Assembly: GCA_050178385.1 (NCBI GenBank)
Contig: JBFXGD010000089.1
Coordinates: 1 to 13,640, forward strand
Source: Calditrichaceae bacterium
Lineage (GTDB): Bacteria > Calditrichota > Calditrichia > Calditrichales > JBFXGD01
DNA: 13,640 nt
Direction of reading: 5' to 3'
Both the position numbers and the translations under genes were made by a program. The notes beneath the pieces were generated by a model. That model was not told the DNA's origin. It was given only the letters and a program-made list of their open reading frames with translations, and did not search any database. Of the stretch, positions 77 to 13,640 are shown piece after piece. Numbering within the stretch: position 1 is the first letter of the stretch; each line of letters starts with the position of its first letter.

Positions 77-1327
77 TTACTGAACAGTACGTACACAACG
101 TACATAATTAAATATCCTGATTGCGTCGCCTTGCGGTCCATGGCCCGTAGGATAATCATCCGGATTACCAACTTTGGGATCGCTGCGCTGGGCACCGGCT
201 CCATGCACATCCTGCCACATTCCATTCATGTAACCCATCGCACGCCCAAAGCTTACATAAACCGCAAAACCGCCGCCCACAGATGACCAGTTGCTGTGCG
301 TGGTGCTTGTCCAATAGAATCCATAGTCAGCCTGCCCGGCTTCATTCGTAATTTCTGTGCAGTTAAAAAGCGGATCGATGGCAGCAGAAGCGTTTGTTCC
401 GGACGAATACGTGTAATCAACTATACTTTGCAGCTCTTTTGCATCCGGCAGCCGCCAATCGGTATAGCCCGCGTATTCAAGATTTTCCGCATAGCTCAAA
501 GCGTCTTCCCAGTTCATGGCCGTTTTGTTGTCATTTTGCATCCACATAAGTCCGGTGGCATCATCACTGATCGTACTGTCGCCGTTATCTCTAAAATTAT
601 TTATGCCGTATCCCGTGTTTCCGCGCGTGTATAAAACAAAGAAGGTTTTTTCACCCGGTCCAAATGGCATTTCCAGACCATACCCTTTGATGCGGCCATC
701 GGCAAAATTTACCCCAAACAATAAATCTCCGCCGGTATATAGGGATGTTGTGGCAAATTGAGAATCAATAATGCGTTCACCGGCTTCCACATCACCATAG
801 GCAAAATCGAAATATTTTGTGTCAATAAAGGGAATAAGCTGGTCCGTTGATACGCCTTCATAGCCGCTTGGGTCAACGCCGCTGAAAACTATAAGTGAGT
901 ACAATTCTTTGATGTCCGGCAACCGCCAGTCATCATAACCGGCCTGATCAAAATCATCGGCCCCGGCAAGCGCTTCCGAATATGTCATTTTATCGTCCGC
1001 ATCAATATCCCCGTCACCATCCATATCCGGACTCTTAGCCCACATCAAACCGGTTACCATGTCCGTAATCGTCCCATCACCGTTATCCACATAGTTTGTC
1101 TCGTTGCGTGAATACATCGCGTCCTGGCCGTAAAACGCGTCACCTTTTGATGGAGTCACAGTTACATTATTATTGTCGTAGAATTTCGTTTGATTGGTAC
1201 TCACAACAGGATAACCACTTATCTCAGAGAGATTATCGTCAGTTAATTCTGTACTTGTTAGCGCATTACTGCATGCTGTAAAAATGGTGAACACCAAAGT
1301 CAGCAAAATAAATATTCTTGATCTCAT
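77..1327 (-). CDS. Lipoprotein with two DUF1566 (Lcl C-terminal-like) domains and an EF-hand-like loop
   Basis: 416 aa ORF with a hydrophobic N-terminus and lipobox FTA-C19. It carries two copies of the DUF1566 pattern (DNGDGTITDMVTGLMW...GYDDWRLPDIKELYSL and DNGDSTISDDATGLMW...GYTDWRLPDAKELQSI) and ends in YVRCVR, typical of the family. A DMDGDGDIDADD loop lies in the first domain. Confidence 0.85.
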   Translation of the reverse strand: MRSRIFILLTLVFTIFTACSNALTSTELTDDNLSEISGYPVVSTNQTKFYDNNNVTVTPSKGDAFYGQDAMYSRNETNYVDNGDGTITDMVTGLMWAKSPDMDGDGDIDADDKMTYSEALAGADDFDQAGYDDWRLPDIKELYSLIVFSGVDPSGYEGVSTDQLIPFIDTKYFDFAYGDVEAGERIIDSQFATTSLYTGGDLLFGVNFADGRIKGYGLEMPFGPGEKTFFVLYTRGNTGYGINNFRDNGDSTISDDATGLMWMQNDNKTAMNWEDALSYAENLEYAGYTDWRLPDAKELQSIVDYTYSSGTNASAAIDPLFNCTEITNEAGQADYGFYWTSTTHSNWSSVGGGFAVYVSFGRAMGYMNGMWQDVHGAGAQRSDPKVGNPDDYPTGHGPQGDAIRIFNYVRCVRTVQ

Positions 1328-1357
1328 TTTTTTGTTCTGTTTTATAGTTTAAAATTC

Positions 1358-1753
1358 TTACCTGCGGCCCGGTCTTTGTTGTTTGCCCGGATTCCTGTTT
1401 TTAATATACGCTTCATATTTAGCGATTTGATCATCATTTAACAGTTCTTTAATCTGGTTATCAAAATCCTTTCTTAAATCTTCCATTGCCTGACGGTTGC
1501 TTTCACGATCGCCTTTATTCGCTTCCATTAATTCTTTGGCGTCCGCAAAATGTGTAAAATGCAGATCAGTTATCGCGGATTTCTGCTCTTCCGTCAAAGT
1601 AAGCGCTTCAGCCAACTCATCCACTATTTTTACAATTTGCGCGGAATCGGGCAGTGCTGGCGGTCCTTGCCGCTGAGCAAACAAATTGCCTGTAATAATC
1701 AGACTTATCAGCATCACCAGCATCGGGTAAGTTCTTTTTCTTTGATTAATCAT
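1358..1753 (-). CDS. Secreted helical protein, Spy/CpxP-like (LTxxQ motifs; DUF4890-like)
   Basis: 131 aa with a Sec signal ending LFA|Q, two LTxxQ-like motifs (LTLTEEQK, LLNDDQ) and charged helical composition. RBS AAGGAG at 1761-1766 (minus strand). Confidence 0.7.
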   Translation of the reverse strand: MINQRKRTYPMLVMLISLIITGNLFAQRQGPPALPDSAQIVKIVDELAEALTLTEEQKSAITDLHFTHFADAKELMEANKGDRESNRQAMEDLRKDFDNQIKELLNDDQIAKYEAYIKNRNPGKQQRPGRR

Positions 1754-1794
1754 TGTACTTCTCCTTTTGTTTTAATGATATTTTCTGTTCTAAT

Positions 1795-1829
1795 ACTTGA
1801 GACGTTAACCAGGAAAAAAACTTGTGGTT
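1795..1829 (-). promoter_or_regulatory. Putative ECF sigma-factor promoter, copy 1 (-35 CCACAAG, -10 CGTC)
   Basis: Minus strand reads AACCACAAG-TTTTTTTCCTGGTT-AACGTC-TC-AAGT, about 45 nt upstream of the ATG at 1753. The same motif with the same spacing occurs at 4605-4639. CGTC is a common ECF -10 core. Confidence 0.7.
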
Positions 1830-1861
1830 GGATTTAATTTTTTATCCGCGAGTATTTAATG

Positions 1862-1899
1862 GATAAAATAACCCTTCACCAACTGTTAGTGAAGGGTTA
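1862..1899 (-). terminator. Rho-independent terminator after the flavoprotein gene
   Basis: Perfect 11-bp inverted repeat TAACCCTTCAC (1869-1879) / GTGAAGGGTTA (1889-1899), followed on the minus strand by TTTTAT. It lies 25 nt past the stop codon at 1925. Confidence 0.75.
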
Positions 1900-1924
1900 A
1901 GTATGTGTTATCGCTGTAACCAGG

Positions 1925-3694
1925 TCAGGAATTGACAAACGGCTGTTTTTCAAACTTCATAGTTCCGTCTTTTCCTTTATAGATATTTATCCATACACGC
2001 CAGTTCTTATCGTCCATATCGGGATAATCCAGCCTGTAATGGCTACAGCGGCTTTCTTTACGCATAATGGACGCTTTGAGCTTCATCTCGGCGCTGATAA
2101 TCATATTGGCGGTCTCATGCGCAAGTCTCAGCTCGTGCATATCCGTAGCCTTGAGCATAGGCATGTGGTGATCGCGCAACTCTTCAATATTAGCCAAAGC
2201 GGCTTTTAACAGATTCTCCTTTTTTATATAAAGTATAAAGTTGGGAATCATGATGCCCTGCAATGTTTGTGTAACCCAGGCAGGGCTATAACCGGCTTCT
2301 TTTTTTAACGGCGCGAGCATCTCTTCCTGAACTTTATCCCGTTTTGATTTTGAGATCTCAGATAATTCAACATTTTTTGAGTATTCGGCTGCTGCCTCTG
2401 CCGCTACGGCGCCCTGAACCGCGGAACCGGCTAATGATGATCCAATCTGTGTATAGATAGCCCCGGCCATATAAGATCCCAAAGCATCACCGGCTGCATA
2501 CAGACCCGGAATATTGGATTCACATTTTTCATTAATCGGCACAAGTCCTTCGGATTTATGAATGGACATACCGGCAGAAGATCCGCCAACGGCGGAACCG
2601 CCCATTCCCGGAGGTCCGTCGCCTTCGCCATCAGGTTTTTTCCCCCCGGGCCGGGAACCTTCGCCACGAGGTGGTCTGTCACCATCCGGTCTGTCGCCGC
2701 CATCCTGAGGGCCGTCCTGATTAAATTCAGCAGGCCGGTAAGGTCCTCCTTCAATTTGTTGAGATTGCTCCGTTCCCGGAGGCCCCATTTGGACTGAATT
2801 TCCGCTCATATAAGCCATGTAATTCAACTCAACACCCAAATCGTGGCGAATACCTACGCCGGTTGTACCCGGTTTTTGTTCAAACATGCCATGCCAGCCA
2901 TCATAACAGGCCGCGGCATTGGTAGCCTGACCCGGATGACCGTCGTTCCACTCTTTGCCGGTGATTTTGGCGCCAATGTTATAAGCCATAACGGTCCCAT
3001 CATGTGTGAGATCGCAAATGGGAAATCCGTTTGGCTTAAAACCACCGGCTCCTGTACATAGAATAACACTTTTTGCGCGGAAAATATGGACCTTTTCTTC
3101 GTCCAGACTAAATCCTGCCGCTCCGGCAATACGGCCATTTTCCTTTATAAGATGTGTTATGGTGATCCGCTCCATAACCGGTATTTCGCGCTCATCAATG
3201 GGTTTGCGGAAAGAGTTATTGTACAGGTTGGAATCAAAGAAACCCCATTCCCGTAATTCATTTACGCGAGCCAGTGATTGCTCTGCCATTTGCCGGGTAT
3301 AAACCGGATTATTTGTACCAAGGGCAGAGCGGGAGACCGATTCTACAAACTCATCAAGCGTGACATGTTCCTTTGATGAATCAAACGAGAATATGCCTTT
3401 TGCGAATGGTGTTTGTCCGGATGAGCCTAAGCGACCCTTTGAAACGAGTAATGTCTTTGCCCCGGCGTCATGAGCTTTTACTGCTGCGAATAATCCTGCC
3501 ATGCCGCCTCCTATCACCAACACGTCGCTGTCAGTTTCGGTAAACCTCATCTTAGTGATATCCACTACAGGGCGTTCAGAAGACCAGCCGTATTTCAGTC
3601 CCATTGATGCGAGGGCCGCTAAACTTAAAGCACCGCCGGCCATCGTAATAAATTGACGTCTGGAAAGATCTTTGTTTTTACGCGGCTTTTTCAT
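1925..3694 (-). CDS. Tat-signal FAD-dependent oxidoreductase, succinate dehydrogenase/fumarate reductase/APS reductase flavoprotein superfamily (substrate unknown)
   Basis: 589 aa. N-terminal SRRQFI twin-arginine motif plus hydrophobic stretch; Rossmann motif DVLVIGGGMAG; AKSVILCTG; SNIPGLYAAGD; SdhA/AprA-type C-terminal RKESRCSHYRLDYP. RBS AGGGAG. Confidence 0.85.
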   Translation of the reverse strand: MKKPRKNKDLSRRQFITMAGGALSLAALASMGLKYGWSSERPVVDITKMRFTETDSDVLVIGGGMAGLFAAVKAHDAGAKTLLVSKGRLGSSGQTPFAKGIFSFDSSKEHVTLDEFVESVSRSALGTNNPVYTRQMAEQSLARVNELREWGFFDSNLYNNSFRKPIDEREIPVMERITITHLIKENGRIAGAAGFSLDEEKVHIFRAKSVILCTGAGGFKPNGFPICDLTHDGTVMAYNIGAKITGKEWNDGHPGQATNAAACYDGWHGMFEQKPGTTGVGIRHDLGVELNYMAYMSGNSVQMGPPGTEQSQQIEGGPYRPAEFNQDGPQDGGDRPDGDRPPRGEGSRPGGKKPDGEGDGPPGMGGSAVGGSSAGMSIHKSEGLVPINEKCESNIPGLYAAGDALGSYMAGAIYTQIGSSLAGSAVQGAVAAEAAAEYSKNVELSEISKSKRDKVQEEMLAPLKKEAGYSPAWVTQTLQGIMIPNFILYIKKENLLKAALANIEELRDHHMPMLKATDMHELRLAHETANMIISAEMKLKASIMRKESRCSHYRLDYPDMDDKNWRVWINIYKGKDGTMKFEKQPFVNS

Positions 3695-4337
3695 TTTGGT
3701 TTAGCTCCCTTGTTTTTATCTGTTTAAAAAAATATGTTTTTAGAACAAGTATTTCACTGCCCATTGCCAGAGTAATAATATAAATGGACATGGCCAGGTT
3801 GGTGTGACGACCAAGATCTATCATATGCCATGTGGCAATCGCAACAAAAATCATCGCCAAAACACCATGAATATATCTCCAGTTTGTATAGCTCAAAGAC
3901 AGCCTGTCGCGAAAGAATGAAAGAATGCCCAAGGTCAGCATTAAACTCCACGCGACTATCCCAAGTATCACCCCCAAACTGTCAAATGTAGTGATGATAG
4001 TAACAAATGCCTCCAGAGGGGCAACACCGGCTTCAAAAAATCGTGATACGACTAATAGAAACGGGTGAACCAGGAAAACCGCTACGGCCGTATATCCAAT
4101 GAATTTGTGGTATTTAACAATCCTGCTCATCCTGAACAATTTTACAGCTTTCCCGTTGCTTCTTGTGAGAAAAAAAAGTCCAAGCATCATGGGAAAGGCA
4201 AGAATGAACAAAACTGACAAGGATTCTTTCAAGACAGTTTTACGAGCGAAATCTCCCAGGATATATAGCATTAAAGGGAAACCAACAAAAAATCCTGTTA
4301 CAGGAACAAGCCAATCTTTCTTAGTATATTGCATCAT
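3678..4337 (-). CDS. Ferric reductase-like transmembrane (di-heme cytochrome b, MsrQ/YedZ-like) protein
   Basis: 219 aa with about 6 hydrophobic segments and two His-x13-His pairs in TM helices (YHKFIG...LVHP; IHGVL...TWH). WRYIH resembles the family's WxxxH motif. No C-terminal FAD/NAD domain. Overlaps the flavoprotein start by 17 nt. Confidence 0.8.
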   Translation of the reverse strand: MMQYTKKDWLVPVTGFFVGFPLMLYILGDFARKTVLKESLSVLFILAFPMMLGLFFLTRSNGKAVKLFRMSRIVKYHKFIGYTAVAVFLVHPFLLVVSRFFEAGVAPLEAFVTIITTFDSLGVILGIVAWSLMLTLGILSFFRDRLSLSYTNWRYIHGVLAMIFVAIATWHMIDLGRHTNLAMSIYIITLAMGSEILVLKTYFFKQIKTRELNQNEKAA

Positions 4338-4341
4338 TTTT

Positions 4342-4557
4342 TCACCCCCACGAAACGATAACCGGAATCGATTTTTCCGGTGAAATGGTTATAGCATCAA
4401 CCGGACAATACATCCGGCACAGATGACAGATTTGGCAATCGGCAGGATACATGATAACTGCTTTATTTGTATCGGGATCAATACGAATCACATCTGTAGG
4501 ACAGGTCTCTACGCAAATTCCGCAACCGATACACCCGTTTATGCTTTCTATTGACAT
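4342..4557 (-). CDS. 2x[4Fe-4S] dicluster ferredoxin (AprB-like small subunit)
   Basis: 71 aa with two CxxCxxCxxxCP motifs ([24 protein letters not shown]) and no signal peptide. RBS AAGGAAAGGA upstream. Confidence 0.92.
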
Positions 4558-4639: not shown

Positions 4640-4655
4640 TGTTTTGAGTTTTATT

Positions 4656-4692
4656 AAAAAAAAGAGCCCTTCATTCTGACAAATGAAGGGCT
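4656..4692 (-). terminator. Rho-independent terminator after cotH-like gene
   Basis: Perfect 11-bp stem AGCCCTTCATT (4665-4675) / AATGAAGGGCT (4682-4692) with a 6-nt loop, followed on the minus strand by C and T8. It lies 32 nt past the stop at 4725. Confidence 0.88.
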
Positions 4693-4724: not shown

Positions 4725-6110
4725 TTAATTCACGTAATTCATTACCGTGTTATAGCGGCTGCTCACATGGGAGATTAAATAATTCACAGCCGTATTAAAA
4801 TCGCTGTCAGATTCTAAGAATGTATAATAAGGCTGTTCGCCATCAGCACCAACTACATAATCGGAAATCAGATTCTGGTAATATTGATATTTGCTTGTCA
4901 TTTTTGCCGGTTCAAACGCGGTCTCAACAACTTGTCTCAGATAGGTTTTGTAGCTGTTTAAATATTGCTCATCATCCAATAAATAGCGTATTAAGGGCCA
5001 GGAACTATTTACTTCATAGCAGGAAACCGAAAGAGCCCCCGTTTGTTTCCCTGTTTGCAAGGCTTCGTTGTTGTCCCAGGGGATCCATGTTAACCAGGCA
5101 TGTTCAGGATCATTATAAAGATAATAATTATGAGGCATCCGGCCATAGGTATCCCAGTTTTGAACCGCAATATTAACAGCAAGCCATCTTAGAAATCCAT
5201 TCACATTAAAAACCGTCTCCAGGGAAGCCCTCCAGGAAGCGGCATTGGTTGTTCTTTCGGATGAATGCAAAACATCAAAAAGCGCTTCAACATCCGACCA
5301 ATCACCGTCTTCATTGGTCTTCTTCTCAAAATAAGATGTACTGAACGTGTTGGCGGCAAAACTGGCGCCGCTGCCTTCAGGTTTATAAACATTACCTTCA
5401 TCCTCAGCAAACTGGTTTTCTATCATGGTGTCATCCACAATTTCGATCATCGTATAAAGGCCAAAATATGTAGGTCCATCGCCATGATCGATATAAATGC
5501 GATAAAAGGCGGTTCGCGGTGCGGGTACACCAAAATCCCTGAAAATTTCCGGAACAACTTTTTCACGGAGTAAGGATTCATCATCGAAATTACTGGAAAG
5601 AGAAAGTTCTTTAAACCCATAAAAGCGCTGATTGGTGATCTGCGGAATCTCATCTTCAAACTGGTCAAAATTAAGCCTTAATGGTAATTTCCATATTCCA
5701 CTTGACCAGGTGGATTGTAAGCTGGAATTTCCTTTAAAACGAACACCAACCTGATACCACTCGATACCATTTGAAAAAACAGAGCAGGGGACATAAACCG
5801 GATTCTCGTTTGAGTCATCCGCGGGCGCAGTGGCACGCGATCCGAAACTACCGTAGTTCTGTTCCATTTCATCCAGCATCACCTGCCAGTTGTCGCTGTC
5901 TATTACAAGATCCAAACGATTTACCCGGTTTTGAGGAAAAACAATATCATAGTCGGGATCGGCGCTTTTCCCGTGTGTGGTTTCAGTCCAGTCAGGAGTC
6001 TCAATTCCCGTATCAAAAATCAGTTGACTTTCGGTGCTGTTTGTACTTGTATCTTCACAACTAATCAAAATTGACAGGAACAGCAGCACAGATATAATTT
6101 TGATATACAT
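4725..6110 (-). CDS. CotH kinase family lipoprotein
   Basis: 461 aa with lipobox LIS-C18. CotH motifs: VGVRFKGNSS, LRLNFD, FYGFKELSL, LLREKV, GVPAPR, YFGLYTMIE, NWDTY...HNYYLY, WIPWDNNEA. RBS AAGGAG. Confidence 0.9.
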   Translation of the reverse strand: MYIKIISVLLFLSILISCEDTSTNSTESQLIFDTGIETPDWTETTHGKSADPDYDIVFPQNRVNRLDLVIDSDNWQVMLDEMEQNYGSFGSRATAPADDSNENPVYVPCSVFSNGIEWYQVGVRFKGNSSLQSTWSSGIWKLPLRLNFDQFEDEIPQITNQRFYGFKELSLSSNFDDESLLREKVVPEIFRDFGVPAPRTAFYRIYIDHGDGPTYFGLYTMIEIVDDTMIENQFAEDEGNVYKPEGSGASFAANTFSTSYFEKKTNEDGDWSDVEALFDVLHSSERTTNAASWRASLETVFNVNGFLRWLAVNIAVQNWDTYGRMPHNYYLYNDPEHAWLTWIPWDNNEALQTGKQTGALSVSCYEVNSSWPLIRYLLDDEQYLNSYKTYLRQVVETAFEPAKMTSKYQYYQNLISDYVVGADGEQPYYTFLESDSDFNTAVNYLISHVSSRYNTVMNYVN

Positions 6111-6138
6111 GTCCTTCTCCTTATGGGTATAAATTTTT

Positions 6139-7800
6139 TCAATTTACAATCGTTATTGTGTCGGAAATGATGAGACTTTTGTACAGACTCCCGCCCGCGT
6201 ACGTTCCGTCCTTATATAGCCCGTCAGTAGAAGTTCCGGTGCAACTACCACCTGTGTAAACATTGTACGAAGTTCCTTTGACAAGTTTTGATGATGAAAA
6301 GACAACGGACTGGTATGATTTTGCGGGGCTAAAGGTTAATATCTCTTCACCGCTTTGGGATTCCATGTGTATTAATGTTCCGGCGTCTTTTGTTGAGTTG
6401 AAGTTTACAAGAATACAATATTGTTCTGATGATGTGCACGGAGCTTTTGTCATTGTGAAATAACTACCCGCCGCTACCAGAAATCCACCGTTCATCTCAA
6501 ACGTACCATCATAATCCAACGCGCTGCTTGATGTGTCTGAAGAACCGCTGACGAGTAAGGTCCCATCGGTCATTAATATTGAAGAGTTTGCGTCAATGCC
6601 ATCACCATCCGCGTTTACTACAATATAACCTCCGTTAACATAAATATAGCTGCCGCTCTCCGCTGCCAGGTTAATGCCGTCGTCACTTGAGACAATGTGT
6701 ATCTCACCGCCGTTAACGGTAATATCCCCCTTGACGCTTTCAATACCTTCAAATGACTTTTCAATGTTAATCTCCCCGCCGTTTATGACCAAATCATAAT
6801 CGGCATGAATAGCATCATCATCGCAAGAAATAGTTAGGATACCATCATTGATTGTGATCAGGCCATCGGAATGAATTCCATCATTACCGGAATTTATTGT
6901 GATTGTACCTCCATCAATAGTCACACTTATAGATCCATTGATTCCTTGTCCACCGGATGATATTGAGATTTCCCCGGAACTGATATCCACATCTTTTTGA
7001 GCAGCTATGGCTTCACTGGAGGCGGTTATGTCAATAACACCTTTCTCAATAGTAATGTACCCCATTGAAGCGTCATCGGCATTATCGGATTTCAAACCAA
7101 TACCGGCAGCATCCACAGTGATATTTCCATCTTTCACAATAAGATAATCTTTTCCCCTGATACCATCATCAACCGCATGGACCCGGATATTTCCGCTTGT
7201 AATTATCAATCCGTCCTTACCTGAAATACCGTCATTGTAATTTCCAAAGACCGTTAAGCTGCCATTTCCATAGAAAGTAAGATCAGCTTTACTGAAGACA
7301 GCGGCATTGGGTTCAGCCACATCCGTGTTTGCATAAGTATATGATGACCCGTCCTTTAAATAATTTTCTGAATTATCCGCAAGAACGATCATTACCCTGG
7401 CTGCCTTCTCAACATACACAGGCGCATGTGTCGAGCAGTTGATATCCACGTTATTTAAAATGAGCCGGACAATTTCATTATCATCGGTATCAACTACTAT
7501 CCGGCCATCTTCAAGTGAACCGCTTATATTATATGAACCCGCTGATGTAATTGCTAAGATGCTTCCCTCCGCGATGGCACCGTTTCCATCAACAGTAATG
7601 CTGTTTCCATTTAACATGATTGGAATTTCTTCAGAGCTGTCCCAGATATAATCTCCCGCATCATCATGACTTTTAGCATCATCAACAATTGTTGTTTCGG
7701 TTTCATCTGCAGTATCATCTGCATTTGTAGAATTTTGGCAGGCGATGAATCCTGTCGTTACTAAACTAAATATCAGCAATACATATATTTTGTTATACAT
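6139..7800 (-). CDS. Cthe_2159-family (DUF4353) carbohydrate/metal-binding beta-helix lipoprotein
   Basis: 553 aa with lipobox FIA-C21. N-terminal pattern ITSAGSYNISGSLEDGRIVV...VRLILNNVDI...AAVFSKADLTFYGNGSLTV. Repeated ~22-aa beta-helix rungs (DDGIRGKD, NDGIHSDG, DDAIHADY, DDGINLAA, GDGIDANS) and ALDYDG. RBS GAGG. Confidence 0.85.
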   Translation of the reverse strand: MYNKIYVLLIFSLVTTGFIACQNSTNADDTADETETTIVDDAKSHDDAGDYIWDSSEEIPIMLNGNSITVDGNGAIAEGSILAITSAGSYNISGSLEDGRIVVDTDDNEIVRLILNNVDINCSTHAPVYVEKAARVMIVLADNSENYLKDGSSYTYANTDVAEPNAAVFSKADLTFYGNGSLTVFGNYNDGISGKDGLIITSGNIRVHAVDDGIRGKDYLIVKDGNITVDAAGIGLKSDNADDASMGYITIEKGVIDITASSEAIAAQKDVDISSGEISISSGGQGINGSISVTIDGGTITINSGNDGIHSDGLITINDGILTISCDDDAIHADYDLVINGGEINIEKSFEGIESVKGDITVNGGEIHIVSSDDGINLAAESGSYIYVNGGYIVVNADGDGIDANSSILMTDGTLLVSGSSDTSSSALDYDGTFEMNGGFLVAAGSYFTMTKAPCTSSEQYCILVNFNSTKDAGTLIHMESQSGEEILTFSPAKSYQSVVFSSSKLVKGTSYNVYTGGSCTGTSTDGLYKDGTYAGGSLYKSLIISDTITIVN

Positions 7801-7829
7801 TCATACCTCTGTTAATTATACGGTTCATT

Positions 7830-8504
7830 CTAAATCTGTTCTTCGTCAAAGAAGAGATTGATATTTTTAACACCATTTGAATTATCCAGGGCGTTTATAA
7901 ATTCCGGGTTTTTATCCTTGTTCTTCAACCTGACATAATAGGATAGCTCCAATATACCCTGATTTTCGATTGTCCGTGTGTTTATCACCTTATGCCATCG
8001 GCAATACCTATCCAGGATCGGTATGTAGGAGAGGGGATCGACGCCATTTGGCTGAAAAGAAAATTGCAGTAAATAATCATTTTGCCGCGCAGCAGTAATA
8101 TTCGATTTTGCCAGTAATAAAATAATTATCCCGACAAAGACTGATCCAAAGATGGCAATTTTATAATATCCCACACCGAATGCCATACCGATCGCCAGCG
8201 CAAAAAATATGAAAACTATATCCTGAGTGTCTTTAACAGCCGTCCTGAAACGAATGATCGACATAGCGCCAACCAGTCCGAACGCGCGGGCAAGATTATT
8301 ACCAATAACCATGATAACGATGGCTGTGATCATTGTAAGAATAATCATCGAATTTACAAAAGCCGCCGAATACCCGGCCCCGCGGTAGGATTTTCGGTAA
8401 ATGTAAGCGATAAAAAGTCCACAACACAAAGCGACGATGATGTTTTTCATTATTTCAAATATGGATACAGGAAACAGATTTAGACTTTGCATTTCATTAA
8501 ACAT
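7830..8504 (-). CDS. DUF4956 family membrane protein
   Basis: About 5 TM segments plus a soluble C-terminal domain, with the family signature GNNLARAFGLVGAMSIIRFRTAVKD. ATG at 8504 is 7 nt after GGAG; the alternative start is GTG at 8507. The start overlaps the 3' end of the VTC gene. Confidence 0.88.
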   Translation of the reverse strand: MFNEMQSLNLFPVSIFEIMKNIIVALCCGLFIAYIYRKSYRGAGYSAAFVNSMIILTMITAIVIMVIGNNLARAFGLVGAMSIIRFRTAVKDTQDIVFIFFALAIGMAFGVGYYKIAIFGSVFVGIIILLLAKSNITAARQNDYLLQFSFQPNGVDPLSYIPILDRYCRWHKVINTRTIENQGILELSYYVRLKNKDKNPEFINALDNSNGVKNINLFFDEEQI

Positions 8505-9276
8505 CACAGCACTCCCTGCTTATGATCATGTTCCGCCTGCTAAAGCGTTGATTTTTAAACTCCGCGTGTGTTTCCAGAGACATGGTGTACTTTGATAATG
8601 CCCGTCGGTTTAATCCATATTTGCTAATAAGCGATATGATCCAGTTGGGCAGGCTTCCAAAAAATTTTACTTCAAGAATAAAGTGGTTGATCAATGCAGA
8701 TTTAACGTTATCTTCTTCATAAAGATGCTTTAGGTCGGGATAAATAACACTGCGCAGGTTTTTATCAAATGTTAAACGCAGAGATGGATCCATTTTTCCC
8801 TGAAAGGCTTCACGATCGTAAATCACCAATACAGCCGGGCGTAAATTTTTCACATAATAATAATAAAGAAATTTCCGCGCGTCTTTTTTCTCCGCGCCAT
8901 TTCCACTAAACGACAGCACAACATCATCTATACGTCTTGAGACTAGTGCTGGGGTAATATTTGCATAATAAAGCGGCGCCCGGCTTTTTGATATACAATT
9001 TGTGTTTTTGTGTTTTATTTCCAGAAAAATTAAGCTTTCTTCTGAACACTCATCATACCCTCTGATGCGGAATTTATTTCTGATTTGTACGCCGTCAATT
9101 TTTTCTTTGTAGCATGTAAACTGCGGCGAGTCATAATAAATGCTTCTAACAGTGTATTGCCCGTCACTCTGTTTTTTTGCAAAATTATCCAACTCCATAT
9201 AAGGACTCAGCTCTGTCCTGAGCTTATCAACAAGGGTGTTAGGGACTAAATATTTATATTCATATCTCGAAGCCAT
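8497..9276 (-). CDS. VTC-domain (polyphosphate polymerase-like, CYTH/TTM superfamily) protein
   Basis: Motifs RYEYKY, YTVRSIYYDS, RNKFRIRGY, FLEIKHK, YDREAF, RLTFD, ILEVKF and SKY are typical of bacterial VTC-domain proteins. Start reassigned from 9336 to the ATG at 9276 (MASRYEYK), which has AGGAAAG upstream and avoids a 52-nt overlap with the upstream gene. Confidence 0.9.
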   Translation of the reverse strand: MASRYEYKYLVPNTLVDKLRTELSPYMELDNFAKKQSDGQYTVRSIYYDSPQFTCYKEKIDGVQIRNKFRIRGYDECSEESLIFLEIKHKNTNCISKSRAPLYYANITPALVSRRIDDVVLSFSGNGAEKKDARKFLYYYYVKNLRPAVLVIYDREAFQGKMDPSLRLTFDKNLRSVIYPDLKHLYEEDNVKSALINHFILEVKFFGSLPNWIISLISKYGLNRRALSKYTMSLETHAEFKNQRFSRRNMIISRECCDV

Positions 9277-9284
9277 AATCTTTC

Positions 9285-10346
9285 CTAATTTAAAATAATC
9301 TGTTTCAGATAAAACGGAATGGACAACGGGCTGCATTTAATTTTGGCCGGCGTAAGCATACCGGAAATAAAGTCATTTGATATTGAATTAACGGTCGCCA
9401 GAACAATAATACACTGCTTCCCGCCTATGAGCTGCATAACCGGTTGAGTCATCTGAACTTCACCGGATAATTGCGATTTAAGGTCAGGTGAATCAAAAAA
9501 AACATTCCCGCCTTCCCGGACAAACGCAGCGTCTTTCAGCGGGACAGGGATACAGGCAACCGCCGAATCAAAATTTGACAAGATCAAAAGGGTATCATTG
9601 GTAAATGACCTTTCAACGCGGCCACTAAATGGCGAAATAATCAGGTTTTGCGAATCCATTTGTTGTTTTAAGAAGAAAATCTCATTTTCAACCGCGTTAA
9701 TTTGTTCTGTCAATTTGTGTATTTCCTCAACTTTCTCACCACTCATGCTCGATTCCAGTTCAGCCTGCCGAACGTTTACGGCTTTAACCAGAGTATTTAA
9801 TTCATCGGCCGCTATCTGGTATTCTTCCCCGGCGATAAGATCTTTATCAAACAATTCCTTAAGCCTCGCGGTAATTTTTTCCTGTTTATCCGATTCCGAT
9901 TGGGCCATGGCCAGTCTTTCTTCCGCCTCCCGCACTTCTGTTATTTTGTTGCCACTCATGCCTGATCGCAGCGATGCTTTCAGAATCTGCAGTTCGCCAT
10001 CCAGTTGAATAAGGTTTTCATGCTTTCTGCTGGAGTAGATAATAGCCAGAGTATCTCCCTTAGCAACAATCTGTCCGTTGGAAAGCTCAGGATTCAGCGT
10101 TAAAACGATTGATTCGCCCCGTTCAAATGAAGTAAGCTGATAGGAATTATTTATTCCGCTGCTAAAATTAATCGTGCTGGTCAAAATCTGCCCGTCATTT
10201 CCGCGGGACAAAATCCATTGTTGAGCGGGCAATATTTTTGCTATACTGTCAATTGTATGCGGCACTTTAATTGGTAAAAAGAAAATGCCCATAGCTGCGA
10301 GAACTATGCCGATGATAATTAGGATACGATGGTTTTTTCCCGACAT
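9285..10346 (-). CDS. Atypical HlyD-like periplasmic adaptor / membrane fusion protein
   Basis: 353 aa with one N-terminal TM helix, a lipoyl-like half-motif (NGQIVAKGDTLA), a long coiled-coil hairpin (RLKELFDKDLIAGEEY), a second half-motif (IISPFSGRV) and a C-terminal beta-barrel-like region ending FISGMLTPAKI. Confidence 0.7.
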   Translation of the reverse strand: MSGKNHRILIIIGIVLAAMGIFFLPIKVPHTIDSIAKILPAQQWILSRGNDGQILTSTINFSSGINNSYQLTSFERGESIVLTLNPELSNGQIVAKGDTLAIIYSSRKHENLIQLDGELQILKASLRSGMSGNKITEVREAEERLAMAQSESDKQEKITARLKELFDKDLIAGEEYQIAADELNTLVKAVNVRQAELESSMSGEKVEEIHKLTEQINAVENEIFFLKQQMDSQNLIISPFSGRVERSFTNDTLLILSNFDSAVACIPVPLKDAAFVREGGNVFFDSPDLKSQLSGEVQMTQPVMQLIGGKQCIIVLATVNSISNDFISGMLTPAKIKCSPLSIPFYLKQIILN

Positions 10347-10384: not shown

Positions 10385-11605
10385 TTACTCATGCCTGAGT
10401 GCTTCAATAGGATCCAGTGCCGCTGCTTTACGTGCCGGGTACCAGCCAAAGAACACGCCGATAAACGAACAAAACAAAAATGATAATAGAATGGATTCCA
10501 TCGTAATCAACACCGGCCAGGACATGATATTCTCAACCGCGCTTGAAGCAAGGATACCGCCGGCTACGCCTAAGACACCTCCGGTTACACTCAACAAAAC
10601 AGCTTCAAGAAGGAACTGCATTAATATATCTTTTCCTTTGCCGCCGATGGCCAGTCTTAATCCTATTTCGCGGGTGCGCTCCGTAACGGACACATACATG
10701 ATATTCATAATACCAATCCCGCCCACGACCAAAGATATAGCAGCTATAGAGCCAAGTAAAACCAGCATCATTTCGGAAATTGAGCCAAATGTACTGATCA
10801 GTTCGGCCTGCGTCCGTAATTCAAAATCATTGTCTTCACTGTCCTTTAATTTATGCGCAAGACGCATGGCTTCTTCAATCTGTGTACTTGCCTCGTCAAT
10901 TTGATCTTCGGATACAGCAGACATAACAATTGCGCGCAGATGCGTTTGGCGGATAACTCTTTTCATAACGGTGGTGTACGGCGCGAGTATGATGTCATCC
11001 TGGTCCTGTCCAAAAGTATTTTCACCTTTTTCTTCCAGTACTCCGATCACTTTAAACGGTATCTTTTCAAAGCGGATGGTTTGGCCGACAGGATCAATAT
11101 CGTCGCCAAATATATTCTCAACAACAGTCTGTCCAATCACGACTACTTTTGCGGCGTTTTTTATATCCTGGGATGATAATGAACGGCCGCTGGCAATATC
11201 ATACTTTTTGATATATGTATATTCTTCGTTTCCGCCGTAGATTTGGGTCGGCCAGTTATTCGTTCCAAAGATAACCTGACCGGAACCATCAATTTCCGGG
11301 GATACAGCCGAAATTTTATCACAGTTTTCCCTTATAAAATCAACATCTGCAACTACCAGTGTTTGTGACATCTCCCTGCTGTGTTGGACTCCGCTACTAT
11401 TTCTGCTGGCGGGTTGGATATGAATAAGATTTGTACCCATGGAAGATATTTTTTCCTGGATACTGGCATTGGATCCTTCTCCGATAGCAAGCATGGCGAT
11501 AACCGATGCCACACCAATTATGATTCCCAGCATCGTAAGGAAGGAGCGTATTTTGTTTCTTTTTATTGCAGCAATGGCAATTTTAATTACGTTTAATATT
11601 TTCAT
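10385..11605 (-). CDS. MacB/FtsX-family ABC transporter permease
   Basis: RSFLTMLGIIIGVASVIAM, a large periplasmic domain, SLVVGGIGIMNIMYVSVTERTREIG and FFGWYPARKAAALDPIEALRHE. ATG at 11605 follows GAGAG; the alternative start is TTG at 11611. Confidence 0.95.
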   Translation of the reverse strand: MKILNVIKIAIAAIKRNKIRSFLTMLGIIIGVASVIAMLAIGEGSNASIQEKISSMGTNLIHIQPASRNSSGVQHSREMSQTLVVADVDFIRENCDKISAVSPEIDGSGQVIFGTNNWPTQIYGGNEEYTYIKKYDIASGRSLSSQDIKNAAKVVVIGQTVVENIFGDDIDPVGQTIRFEKIPFKVIGVLEEKGENTFGQDQDDIILAPYTTVMKRVIRQTHLRAIVMSAVSEDQIDEASTQIEEAMRLAHKLKDSEDNDFELRTQAELISTFGSISEMMLVLLGSIAAISLVVGGIGIMNIMYVSVTERTREIGLRLAIGGKGKDILMQFLLEAVLLSVTGGVLGVAGGILASSAVENIMSWPVLITMESILLSFLFCSFIGVFFGWYPARKAAALDPIEALRHE

Positions 11606-11626
11606 TTTCAACTCTCGTTGTACGGG

Positions 11627-12400
11627 TTAGTTTGCATCTATTAATAAATCAAAAACGGCATCTTCTTCTTTTAAGTTTTCAAGTGCCGTTTGGGCTTCCG
11701 TTAGTGTGTTTACCAGAATATCTTTAATTATCCGGCCGTCACGGAAAACTATATTTCTTTTTGTAAAAGCCGCGATATCGGGCTCATGAGTTACAAAGGC
11801 AATGGTTATCCCGTTTTCATTTAACTCCTGGAACAGGGCCATAATCCCGAAAGACGTCCTGGTATCAAGATTACCGGTTGCTTCATCGGCCAGGATCAGT
11901 ACAGGATCGTTTACCAGCGAACGGGCGATGGCCACACGCTGCTGCTGACCGCCGGACATTTGATTGGAAAGATGGTTCATACGGTCTGCTAAACCGACCG
12001 CATCCAATGCATACTCCGCTTTTTCCCGGCGTATTTTAGCGGTAATCTTAGGATTGTACAACAACGGCAGTTCCACATTTTCCAGGGCCGTGGTTCGCGG
12101 TAACAGGTTATAGGACTGAAACACAAAACCCAGTTTCAAATTGCGTACATCAGCCAATTGGTTTTTATTAAGTGATTTAACATTTGTACCATCAAGCCGG
12201 TAGTCGCCTGCTGTTGGTCTGTCCAGACACCCAAGAATATTAAGCAGGGTAGATTTGCCGGATCCACTGGCGCCCATAATGGCCACAAACTCGCCGGCAT
12301 TTATTGTCAGGTCAATACCACGCAGCGCTCTGACTGTTTCAGTCCCCACCCGGTAATCTTTTTGAAGATTTTCTATTTCGATTATTTTATTGTTTTTCAT
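11627..12400 (-). CDS. ABC transporter ATP-binding protein (MacB/LolD subfamily)
   Basis: Walker A GASGSGKS, Q-loop GFVFQSYNL, signature MSGGQQQR, Walker B/D-loop ILADEATGNLD, H-loop VTHE. Confidence 0.95.
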   Translation of the reverse strand: MKNNKIIEIENLQKDYRVGTETVRALRGIDLTINAGEFVAIMGASGSGKSTLLNILGCLDRPTAGDYRLDGTNVKSLNKNQLADVRNLKLGFVFQSYNLLPRTTALENVELPLLYNPKITAKIRREKAEYALDAVGLADRMNHLSNQMSGGQQQRVAIARSLVNDPVLILADEATGNLDTRTSFGIMALFQELNENGITIAFVTHEPDIAAFTKRNIVFRDGRIIKDILVNTLTEAQTALENLKEEDAVFDLLIDAN

Positions 12401-12459
12401 TTTTCAGCAATTCTTATTTTTGTCAGGTTAATGTTTTTGAGTTCATAATTTGTTAAATG

Positions 12460-13640
12460 TTACCTGCCCGGGCGTCCCGGAGCTTCCTGGACAAACGGGC
12501 TTTGTGTTTCTTCGCTCTTTGCAACATTTTTGCTTGTGTTACTCCCCGCTTCCATAGAAGTAATAACCTGGTCACCCTCATTCAATCCCGAAATTATTTC
12601 AACGCTTACTCCATCTGTTACACCGGTTTCTACTGCTACAGGCTTGATAATTGATCCGTTTTTTACCCAAACGCGTTTGATATTATCAGGGATCTCATCT
12701 TTTTGAACTTCAGATTGTTCTGTCGTTTTTTGTGAACCGGAAGCCGGTCTTTGTGGACGTTCACTCTCCGGAAGGCTATTGAAATAGTCAGTCATTTGCT
12801 CTCGATCCGGTGTAAAACGTATGGCTTTTCCTGCTACAACCAGAGCATCTGTTACTTCTTCAACATATACAGTGATGCTGGCCGTCATACCCGGTTTTAA
12901 TTTTAATTCAGTGTTCTGCGCTGAAACAATCACGGTATATGTAATAACATTCGATGTTTCAGTTGGTTGTAACCGTACTTCTGTGATCGTGCCGGTAAAA
13001 GTTACCTCGGGAAAAGCGTCTACGGTAAATTCCACACGCTGTCCTTCTTTGACCATGCCAATATCTGCTTCGTCCACATTTGCTTCAACCTGCATTTCCG
13101 AAAGATCATTAGTGATTGTAAACAGTTCAGGTGTGCTCATACTGGCTGTAACGGTTTGCCCTTCTTCAACCGCGCGGTTAAGAACAACCCCGTCAATCGG
13201 AGAATAAATATTGGCATAAGCCAAATTTAGTTGTGCTTTATTTAAATTGGCATTGGCCGACTTCAAACCTGCCTGGCTTTTTTTATAATTATATTTGGCC
13301 AGGTCATAATCGCTTTCTGACAGCAAATCCTTTTTAAAAAACTCTTCATTTCGTTCAAAGTTGGCTTTTTGATATTCAAGTTCTGCCTGCGCGTCAAACA
13401 AATCTGCTTCGGCATTTTCCAAACTTGACTGCAAAGTCGATTTGTCGAGTTCAGCAATCAATTGCCCCTTTTCTACTTTCGAATTAAAGTCCACAAACAA
13501 CTTTTCGATCACGCCCGATACCTGGGTTCCAACAATAACAGTATTCGTTGCTTCCAATGTCCCGGTGGCGGTAATTGTGTTGCTTACCGTGCCTTTTTCT
13601 ACGATTGTTGTCTCGAAAACGTAATCGTTGTCATTGATTC
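12460..13640 (-). CDS. MacA-like efflux periplasmic adaptor subunit (5' end beyond the window)
   Basis: The frame stays open from 13557 to the window edge (...YVFETTIVEKGTVSNTITATGTLEATNTVIVGTQVSG). Motifs VEKGQLIAELD, IYSPIDGVV, VDEADIG and LKPGMTA are typical of MacA/HlyD adaptors. Confidence 0.92.
   Translation of the reverse strand, partial: INDNDYVFETTIVEKGTVSNTITATGTLEATNTVIVGTQVSGVIEKLFVDFNSKVEKGQLIAELDKSTLQSSLENAEADLFDAQAELEYQKANFERNEEFFKKDLLSESDYDLAKYNYKKSQAGLKSANANLNKAQLNLAYANIYSPIDGVVLNRAVEEGQTVTASMSTPELFTITNDLSEMQVEANVDEADIGMVKEGQRVEFTVDAFPEVTFTGTITEVRLQPTETSNVITYTVIVSAQNTELKLKPGMTASITVYVEEVTDALVVAGKAIRFTPDREQMTDYFNSLPESERPQRPASGSQKTTEQSEVQKDEIPDNIKRVWVKNGSIIKPVAVETGVTDGVSVEIISGLNEGDQVITSMEAGSNTSKNVAKSEETQSPFVQEAPGRPGR

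Follow-up and report, generated by a model that had tools for sequence, protein, structure and literature searches.

In this study, we examined a five-gene cassette on the 13,640-nucleotide contig JBFXGD010000089.1 (here called the window) of the Calditrichaceae bacterium assembly GCA_050178385.1. It encodes a periplasmic adaptor, a VTC domain protein, a DUF4956 membrane protein and two lipoproteins of the Cthe_2159 and CotH families. The module is real, widespread and in print without a function; the form seen here is that of a diderm and includes a dedicated adaptor. In our best reading, which we hold tentatively and at just under even confidence, the membrane is the site of polyphosphate (polyP) synthesis, and the exported polymer feeds CotH kinases outside the cytoplasm. 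The evidence comes from a Vtc4-type active site in the VTC protein, from co-occurrence with exported CotH proteins in three phyla and from loci in which a second, unrelated polyP polymerase lies beside DUF4956. An extracellular kinase has been called unexpected and its phosphoryl donor unknown (PMC12774918); export of polyP by the cassette would answer this question for exported CotH kinases.

The window is a complete contig within a 3.9-Mb assembly that is 94% complete, and its nearest named homologues are Calditrichaceae, Calditrichia and Melioribacteraceae records. The cassette comprises the following features.

9285..10346, minus strand: periplasmic adaptor (membrane-fusion protein), 353 amino acids; model fold match to MacA/EmrA
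8497..9276, minus strand: VTC domain protein, candidate polyP polymerase, 259 amino acids; Pfam and Vtc4 profile match
7830..8504, minus strand: DUF4956 inner-membrane protein, candidate channel subunit, 224 amino acids; Pfam and model
6139..7800, minus strand: Cthe_2159-family beta-helix lipoprotein, optional accessory, 553 amino acids; Pfam and 4peu match
4725..6110, minus strand: CotH kinase-family lipoprotein, 461 amino acids; Pfam, catalytic aspartates kept
4655..4692, minus strand: terminator-like hairpin (intrinsic) with T tract; 12-pair stem at 4692-4665

From adaptor to CotH, the genes are spaced by 8 nucleotides, an 8-nucleotide overlap (VTC/DUF4956), 29 and 28 nucleotides; the starts used (ATG 9276 for VTC, ATG 8504 for DUF4956) agree with the database proteins P0001 and P0121. 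These coordinates and the hairpin with its T run, similar to one found 3' of CotH in 3/3 relatives examined, bear out an earlier note on this DNA that had described five packed genes with one overlap and one terminator. The gene identities given there were recovered as well, with four Pfam domains above cut-off (CotH, E 5.6e-68; Cthe_2159, 3.2e-108; DUF4956, 1.6e-13; VTC, 7.7e-45) and the adaptor recognized by Foldseek of its model. All five genes are single-copy in the assembly.

Co-occurrence with CotH and conservation of the cassette

A survey of the window's own phylum found VTC in 37 of 86 genomes. CotH was present in all 37 of these and in 20 of the 49 VTC-negative genomes; among the 56 genomes at least 90% complete, the figures were 27/27 and 12/29. 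The median number of CotH matches was 4 in VTC-positive and 1 in VTC-negative genomes. In 20,000 shuffles within families, neither the CotH co-occurrence nor the median copy figure was ever reached. CotH likewise occurred in 16/16 VTC-positive versus 16/85 VTC-negative genomes of a second phylum (that of a Melioribacteraceae genome), and in 9/12 versus 3/89 genomes of a Bacillota sample, where two of the three exceptions are 360-368 amino acids long, i.e., spore-coat-sized. CotH-positive genomes numbered 57/86, 32/101 and 12/101 in the three samples. Strong DUF4956 matches fell into CotH-positive genomes in 38/38 cases in the own phylum and 27/27 in the second, counts that exclude two weak matches (E 1e-8 to 1e-10), and in Bacillota they coincided exactly with the 12 VTC-positive genomes (six weak ones excluded). 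The implication between CotH and DUF4956 is one-way. Recurring VTC-DUF4956-CotH neighbourhoods, as described in the earlier note, are seen as a strong co-occurrence with exported CotH across three phyla; Bacteroides thetaiotaomicron also carries matches to all three families.

PPK1 was found in 27/37 VTC-positive and 22/49 VTC-negative genomes of the own phylum, which rules out VTC as a PPK1 substitute; VTC is therefore not merely a stand-in for the synthesis of storage polyP. The window's own assembly (94% complete) gave no PPK1 or PPK2 match, and the same-genus relative has PPK1.

For the gene neighbourhood, 38 of 40 other VTC matches in the own phylum were fetched as loci (a single-protein scan of contigs had yielded only 4). 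The adaptor gene lies at most 100 nucleotides upstream of VTC in 30/38 of these loci, with one more interrupted by a contig end. A script placed DUF4956 next to VTC in 31/38, and four further cases were recognized from coordinates. Of the 26 loci with 5 kb on either side, 14 have CotH inside that distance and one, from the same-genus genome, has Cthe_2159; this is also the only one of the 38 loci to hold the complete five-gene set. The five genes as a fixed unit are thereby ruled out: the fixed core is adaptor-VTC-DUF4956, to which CotH is frequently and Cthe_2159 rarely joined. A scan of 91 of 113 neighbours showed that most CotH proteins near the cassettes of the phylum are large and secreted and carry LTD as well as C-terminal sorting domains.

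In the second phylum (18 loci), the adaptor gene was found directly upstream in nine loci and as a weak downstream match in one, and a DUF2490 gene took its place in five. In the 12 Bacillota loci, no adaptor abuts VTC-DUF4956, and CotH or Cthe_2159 usually adjoins. Since adaptor or DUF2490 genes accompany the pair in diderms and none abuts it in Bacillota, the core is VTC-DUF4956 plus an envelope partner in diderms.

The window VTC forms a clade with three others (76-83% identity), whose sources are two different families and its own genus; a quick tree (67 rows, three short rows omitted) was used solely to show that this clade spans several families. In the three loci closest by VTC, genes for an extracytoplasmic function (ECF) sigma factor, a probable anti-sigma factor, a small helical protein (Metal_resist match, E 4e-4, in the one scanned) and MacAB precede the cassette. 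This context suggests a mobile island under envelope-stress control. As a side observation, the cassettes of L037, L068, L071 and L072 come after genes for an ECF sigma factor, a probable anti-sigma factor and a Metal_resist-family protein, with the set in L068 lying directly before a VTC of a different clade.

Properties of the encoded proteins

The VTC protein is a basic, cytoplasmic, single-domain protein of 259 amino acids without a hydrophobic segment, and both the SPX domain and the three membrane helices of the eukaryotic catalytic subunit are absent from it. All ten matches of its profile in the PDB were Vtc2, Vtc3 or Vtc4, the best being Vtc4 (3g3q, E 1.1e-18). The Vtc4 ligands required for polyP synthesis are K200, R264, R266, K281, Y359, R361, E426, S457 and K458 (10.1101/2023.01.27.525886). 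Counted on the profile alignment, all nine triphosphate/Mn ligands are present as K8, R70, R72, K88, Y153, R155, E202, S228 and K229, in keeping with the Vtc4-like assignment of the earlier note. Among bacterial VTC open reading frames, R70, R72, K88 and R155 are found in 70/70 and E202 and K229 in 67/67 that are long enough. In hydrolytic tunnel enzymes, four glutamates occupy positions that are basic in Vtc4 (PMC4641920), and by sequence mapping three of these are basic in the VTC protein (R4, K97 or R99, and K204). Judged by these residues, the VTC protein is probably a polyP polymerase, which is the likeliest of its predicted activities. Fusions of VTC and DUF4956, seen as both domains in 3/10 longer matches, each a single sequence, were discounted because two are without the last VTC motif and frameshift-like.

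The model of the DUF4956 protein (pLDDT 76, pTM 0.59) consists of five helices (15-133) and an ACT domain (143-219), giving the MgtC/SapB-like architecture of an N-terminal membrane domain with a C-terminal ACT domain; hydropathy found four strong segments and missed helix 71-87. This helix is the most conserved part of the protein and carries R73, R85 and R87, followed by K91 and D95, with a near-invariant R-F-R motif (R87 in 67/67 and R85 in 65/67 aligned sequences). R73 occurs in 40/43 adaptor-linked proteins versus 1/24 others, two groups that are also clades. If the ACT domain lies inside, R85, R87 and K91 would be located at the cytoplasmic end of the helix and R73 at its outer end. In the yeast VTC complex, five first helices carry Lys/Arg rings needed for translocation (PMC9911596), and we consider it moderately probable that DUF4956 forms the conduit.

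The parallel between DUF4956 and the yeast channel would be one of design, and the sequence points to MgtC. The MgtC/SapB similarity (E 2e-7) is below the Pfam cut-off, for which reason the protein is filed as DUF4956 despite being MgtC-related, and its ACT fold is near MgtC C-terminal domains (Z 7.7, root mean square deviation 3.2-3.4, 83 aligned), a middling result among many ACT folds. No sequence match to Vtc1 was found, nor any Vtc1 chain among the fold matches listed, which the ACT domain filled; Atlas matches for the membrane part (0.76-0.77) are unnamed. The earlier note had suggested a split bacterial analogue of the VTC machine. Given the MgtC-like fold and ACT domain of DUF4956 and the lack of a Vtc1 match in these searches, we favour an analogue of the VTC channel over a split homologue.

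The adaptor (353 amino acids) has a single N-terminal membrane anchor and a long helical hairpin. In Pfam, it gave HlyD/membrane-fusion protein matches below threshold only; its model (pLDDT 85) matched MacA/EmrA in Foldseek (E 1e-14), confirming the identity proposed in the earlier note. It thus shares the adaptor fold of MacAB-TolC and EmrAB-TolC but travels without an ATP-binding cassette (ABC), resistance-nodulation-division (RND) or major facilitator superfamily (MFS) pump, and a TolC gene is absent at the locus. No cognate ABC, RND or MFS pump is conserved with it, MacAB being upstream in just 3/38 loci of the phylum. Elsewhere in the assembly, there are 27 OEP matches.

The CotH protein (lipobox LIS-C18) is the only CotH match in the assembly and matches Bacillus cereus CotH (PDB 5jd9) at a sequence E of 4.8e-16. 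Its D320 and D346 align to D224 and D247 of the B. cereus chain, which lie 23 residues apart, the same spacing as that of the essential D228 and D251 of Bacillus subtilis CotH (PMC7821199). With a PF08757 match and both catalytic aspartates, kinase activity is predicted. The protein differs from the Bacillus spore-coat kinase in being an extracytoplasmic lipoprotein of a non-sporulating diderm and in having WDNN for WDYD. Cthe_2159 binds Ca and glycans. The Cthe_2159 protein of the window has a lipobox (FIA-C21), so that both lipoboxes seen in the earlier note stand, a net charge of -54 and a match to PDB 4peu (E 1.3e-37); both lipoproteins are strongly acidic.

Proposed export of polyphosphate and its alternatives

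A comparative argument came from a long form of DUF4956, which in one own-phylum genome lies two genes before PPK1. Among the best 80 of 198 long-form loci in a metagenome scan, none contained VTC (0/80), 27 contained PPK1 (17 on the same strand) and 60 a secreted gene of 360-385 amino acids. Where at least 2 kb of downstream sequence was present (n = 40), PPK1 was found in 24 loci, the secreted CotH-like gene in 34 and all three genes in 21. The long-form-linked PPK1 has an additional N-terminal domain that is weakly CYTH- and VTC-like. The secreted proteins (A12 family) carry CotH motifs in order and have an Atlas match of 0.97 to a cluster with PF08757 in 11% of members; they gave no match to PDB sequences. 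Two predicted, unrelated polyP polymerases beside DUF4956 and a kinase-like exported protein, in few lineages, are the best comparative argument and point to polyP as the product. Example loci are L122:2509-6654, L155, L159, L168 and L192, with others among L125-L204.

We propose that VTC, as its residues suggest, would use ATP to build polyP on the cytoplasmic side of the inner membrane and that a DUF4956 oligomer would form the conduit. Here, the arginines of helix 71-87 would correspond to the basic rings of the yeast channel, and the ACT domain would serve to dock or gate the polymerase. The adaptor, judged by its fold, may prolong the path across the periplasm, either as far as periplasmic clients or to a TolC-type duct whose gene lies elsewhere. 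Exported polyP would then be the phosphoryl source, directly or via a nucleoside triphosphate (NTP), for exported CotH kinases in a compartment poor in ATP; for CotH as a client of exported polyP, we see an even or slightly better chance. These kinases may phosphorylate envelope proteins or glycans, and the co-occurrence suggests that one cassette could supply the dispersed CotH genes of a genome. Cthe_2159 might be an optional acidic accessory, possibly binding cation-polyP or a glycan substrate.

If true, the cassette would represent coupled synthesis and translocation of polyP in prokaryotes and would give DUF4956 a function. It shares with the eukaryotic VTC complex (yeast Vtc4/Vtc3/Vtc1; 3g3q, 7ytj, 8i6v) a homologous tunnel domain with the Vtc4 catalytic residues and a membrane partner, here DUF4956, whose best-conserved helix carries conserved basic residues at what is probably its cytoplasmic end. 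It differs in that the polymerase has neither SPX domain nor membrane helices, the partner is MgtC-like with an ACT domain instead of the three-helix Vtc1, the proposed target is the periplasm or surface instead of the vacuole, and adaptor and kinase have no counterpart. A wider generalization, possible but doubtful, is that DUF4956 is a widespread polyP channel that takes a Vtc4-like polymerase or a tunnel-domain-fused PPK1, is extended by adaptor, TolC or a DUF2490 barrel, and powers CotH kinases with polyP in place of ATP; bacteria would then possess a secretion system dedicated to polyP and a means of phosphorylation outside the cytoplasm.

Related gene sets have been published. A trio of cotH, polyP polymerase and DUF4956 genes is an accessory to Gram-positive pel loci (10.1101/768473) and is also found in the Clostridium perfringens locus NELoc-2 (PMC2879425). 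The cassette and the pel trio have in common three adjacent families, a secreted CotH and an MgtC-type membrane domain with ACT, whereas the window differs in its diderm host, adaptor, lipoprotein CotH and beta-helix lipoprotein. A scan of 12 proteins of the window showed no pelDEAFG or glycosyltransferase genes; the search for pel did not extend to the remainder of the genome. According to Raju et al., the trio was not found outside pel loci; here, it occurs in many non-pel loci. In Streptococcus intermedius (SIR_1592-1594), deletion of the DUF4956-type membrane protein or of CotH lowered aggregation in sputum medium by >50% (PMC12345266). The statement in the earlier note that no function has been demonstrated therefore holds biochemically and no longer for phenotypes. 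The sfz cluster (PMC8250860) was considered and is not the same system. No paper on the adaptor-linked form, the export or the PPK1 variant was found in a literature search that left subscription journals largely uncovered.

Several observations weigh against polyP export to CotH, chief among them the S. intermedius phenotypes, which misfit a simple linear pathway: the two deletions gave opposite Pel shifts, the paper reports no decrease in aggregation for the polymerase (VTC) deletion, and its preprint notes the VTC likeness and suggests that polyP remains cytoplasmic (PMC12345266). The aspartates of B. subtilis CotH, an ATP-using kinase, are also present in the window CotH (PMC7821199). DUF4956 is absent from 19/57 CotH-positive own-phylum genomes, including the closed G006, and same-phylum genomes are not independent, so that the pattern outweighs p-values. 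No TolC gene was found in the window or among the scanned neighbours (91/113) of the phylum loci. At the VTC active site, E6 keeps one residue of the acidic patch (E6/D6 in 69/70 bacterial VTCs), a lysine at the K458 position is not diagnostic, being shared by the hydrolase AtTTM3 (PMC4641920), and the Y359 position is F in 7/70 bacterial VTCs, a change that lowers polyP in yeast (10.1101/2023.01.27.525886). In the long-form loci, PPK1 is on the opposite strand in 10/27 cases, the PPK1-bearing loci are spread over only 8/20 clusters at 70% identity, and the CotH-likeness of A12 is weak (hhalign probability 10%, E 0.003; CotH Pfam match in 0/10 proteins).

A VTC match is also absent from 11/27 second-phylum genomes with DUF4956 and CotH. 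Five and nine of these 11 genomes were re-searched with other profiles without a parallel positive control, and a divergent enzyme was possibly missed; no CYTH match was found in the five searched, and PPK1, which is common generally, was present in 5/5 tested. Ten of the operons consist of DUF4956, adaptor and a 410-amino-acid gene with a weak OEP match (E 0.002), and one of CotH, DUF4956, adaptor and a 416-amino-acid gene. The ten genomes with the shared layout look like one clade. Their operons (among the DUF4956-adaptor-TolC-like operons of CotH-rich genomes, L109-L112 and L114-L119) follow YceI and DUF6580 genes in those read upstream.

These operons bear on the alternative that survives best, which we regard as unlikely: DUF4956 and adaptor would release a small donor (ATP, NTP or triphosphate) for an ATP-dependent CotH, and VTC or PPK1 would buffer or regenerate this donor at the channel mouth. 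It would account for DUF4956-adaptor-OEP-like operons without VTC, for the ATP-kinase aspartates of CotH, for the streptococcal phenotypes reported for the membrane protein and the kinase only, and for the closer association of CotH with DUF4956 than with VTC in the second phylum (27/32 versus 16/32 CotH-positive genomes). However, the polymer-guiding basic residues of VTC are nearly invariant, the same slot is filled by two unrelated polyP polymerases, and ten of the 11 VTC-less genomes represent one layout and an apparent single clade.

Next in standing, and rather improbable, is the possibility that exported polyP is a polyanion at the surface or in the periplasm that chelates cations, promotes mineral deposition or modifies the matrix, and that CotH and Cthe_2159 act on or bind the polymer without drawing energy from it. 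The ECF sigma, probable anti-sigma and Metal_resist genes before the cassette in four loci, the strong acidity of both lipoproteins and the links to pel and glycosyltransferase loci are consistent with this. It leaves unexplained the near-constant presence in VTC genomes of CotH with intact catalytic aspartates, as well as the higher CotH copy number.

Less probable still is a system without export, in which VTC makes cytoplasmic polyP, DUF4956 is an MgtC-like regulator of phosphate/ATP balance and the adaptor serves another pump, e.g., MacAB. The MgtC/SapB similarity and the ACT fold of DUF4956, the cytoplasmic polyP suggested for S. intermedius in the preprint and the MacAB genes 38 nucleotides upstream in the window argue for it. 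However, MacAB already comes with a MacA and stands before the cassette in only 3/38 loci whereas the adaptor abuts VTC in 30, PPK1 is already present in 27/37 VTC-positive genomes, and DUF2490 or adaptor partners are restricted to diderms in the samples. Finally, it is very improbable that VTC is a triphosphatase, short-chain polyphosphatase or cyclase in a unit that imports or degrades polyP, as the near-identical tunnel centre of AtTTM3, which is without polymerase activity (PMC4641920), the conserved E6/D6 and the CYTH genes abutting the adaptor in two loci might suggest, given that the second-metal acidic patch is mostly basic, that all ten PDB profile matches are Vtc2/3/4 and that adaptors of the MacA/EmrA fold serve export pumps.

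Flanking genes and further observations

Upstream of the cassette, on the same strand, lies one further feature.

10385..13640, minus strand: macA (truncated by the contig end), ABC ATPase and macB permease; context outside the conserved core

Since these three genes end 38 nucleotides before the adaptor gene, an eight-gene transcript is possible; they are probably co-transcribed context and not part of the conserved core. In close relatives, a second CotH gene (~770 amino acids, with LTD and C-terminal sorting domain) lies between macB and adaptor (L072:11666-13984 and L037:6046-8349), at the position of the 38-nucleotide interval in the window. A perfect 12/12 sigma-70 match at 6071-6098 (plus strand), antisense over the CotH start, is absent in three relatives and is probably a coding by-product.

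Downstream of the cassette (77-4557, minus strand), a separate unit encodes a 71-amino-acid ferredoxin, a ferric-reductase-like membrane protein, a 589-amino-acid flavoprotein (apparent twin-arginine leader; Gly/Pro-rich insert), an LTXXQ/Spy-like protein and an Lcl-domain lipoprotein. The cassettes of L003 and L071 are likewise flanked by genes for the latter two.

Among the other loci, the DUF2490-linked VTC clade (L083, L085, L086, L087 and L090) is marked by D6, H59 and, in most members, F153. Adaptor-free VTC/DUF4956/CotH sets occur within diderm glycosyltransferase, flippase or O-antigen-ligase loci (L063-L065, L067, L069, L070 and L084), and one locus of this type has a phosphoenolpyruvate mutase gene upstream. 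A gene for an SdiA-regulated/phytase-like propeller follows DUF4956 in both VTC and long-form loci (L045, L052, L075, L122 and L124). CYTH genes precede the adaptor gene in L045 and L059, and PPK2 follows CotH in L074.

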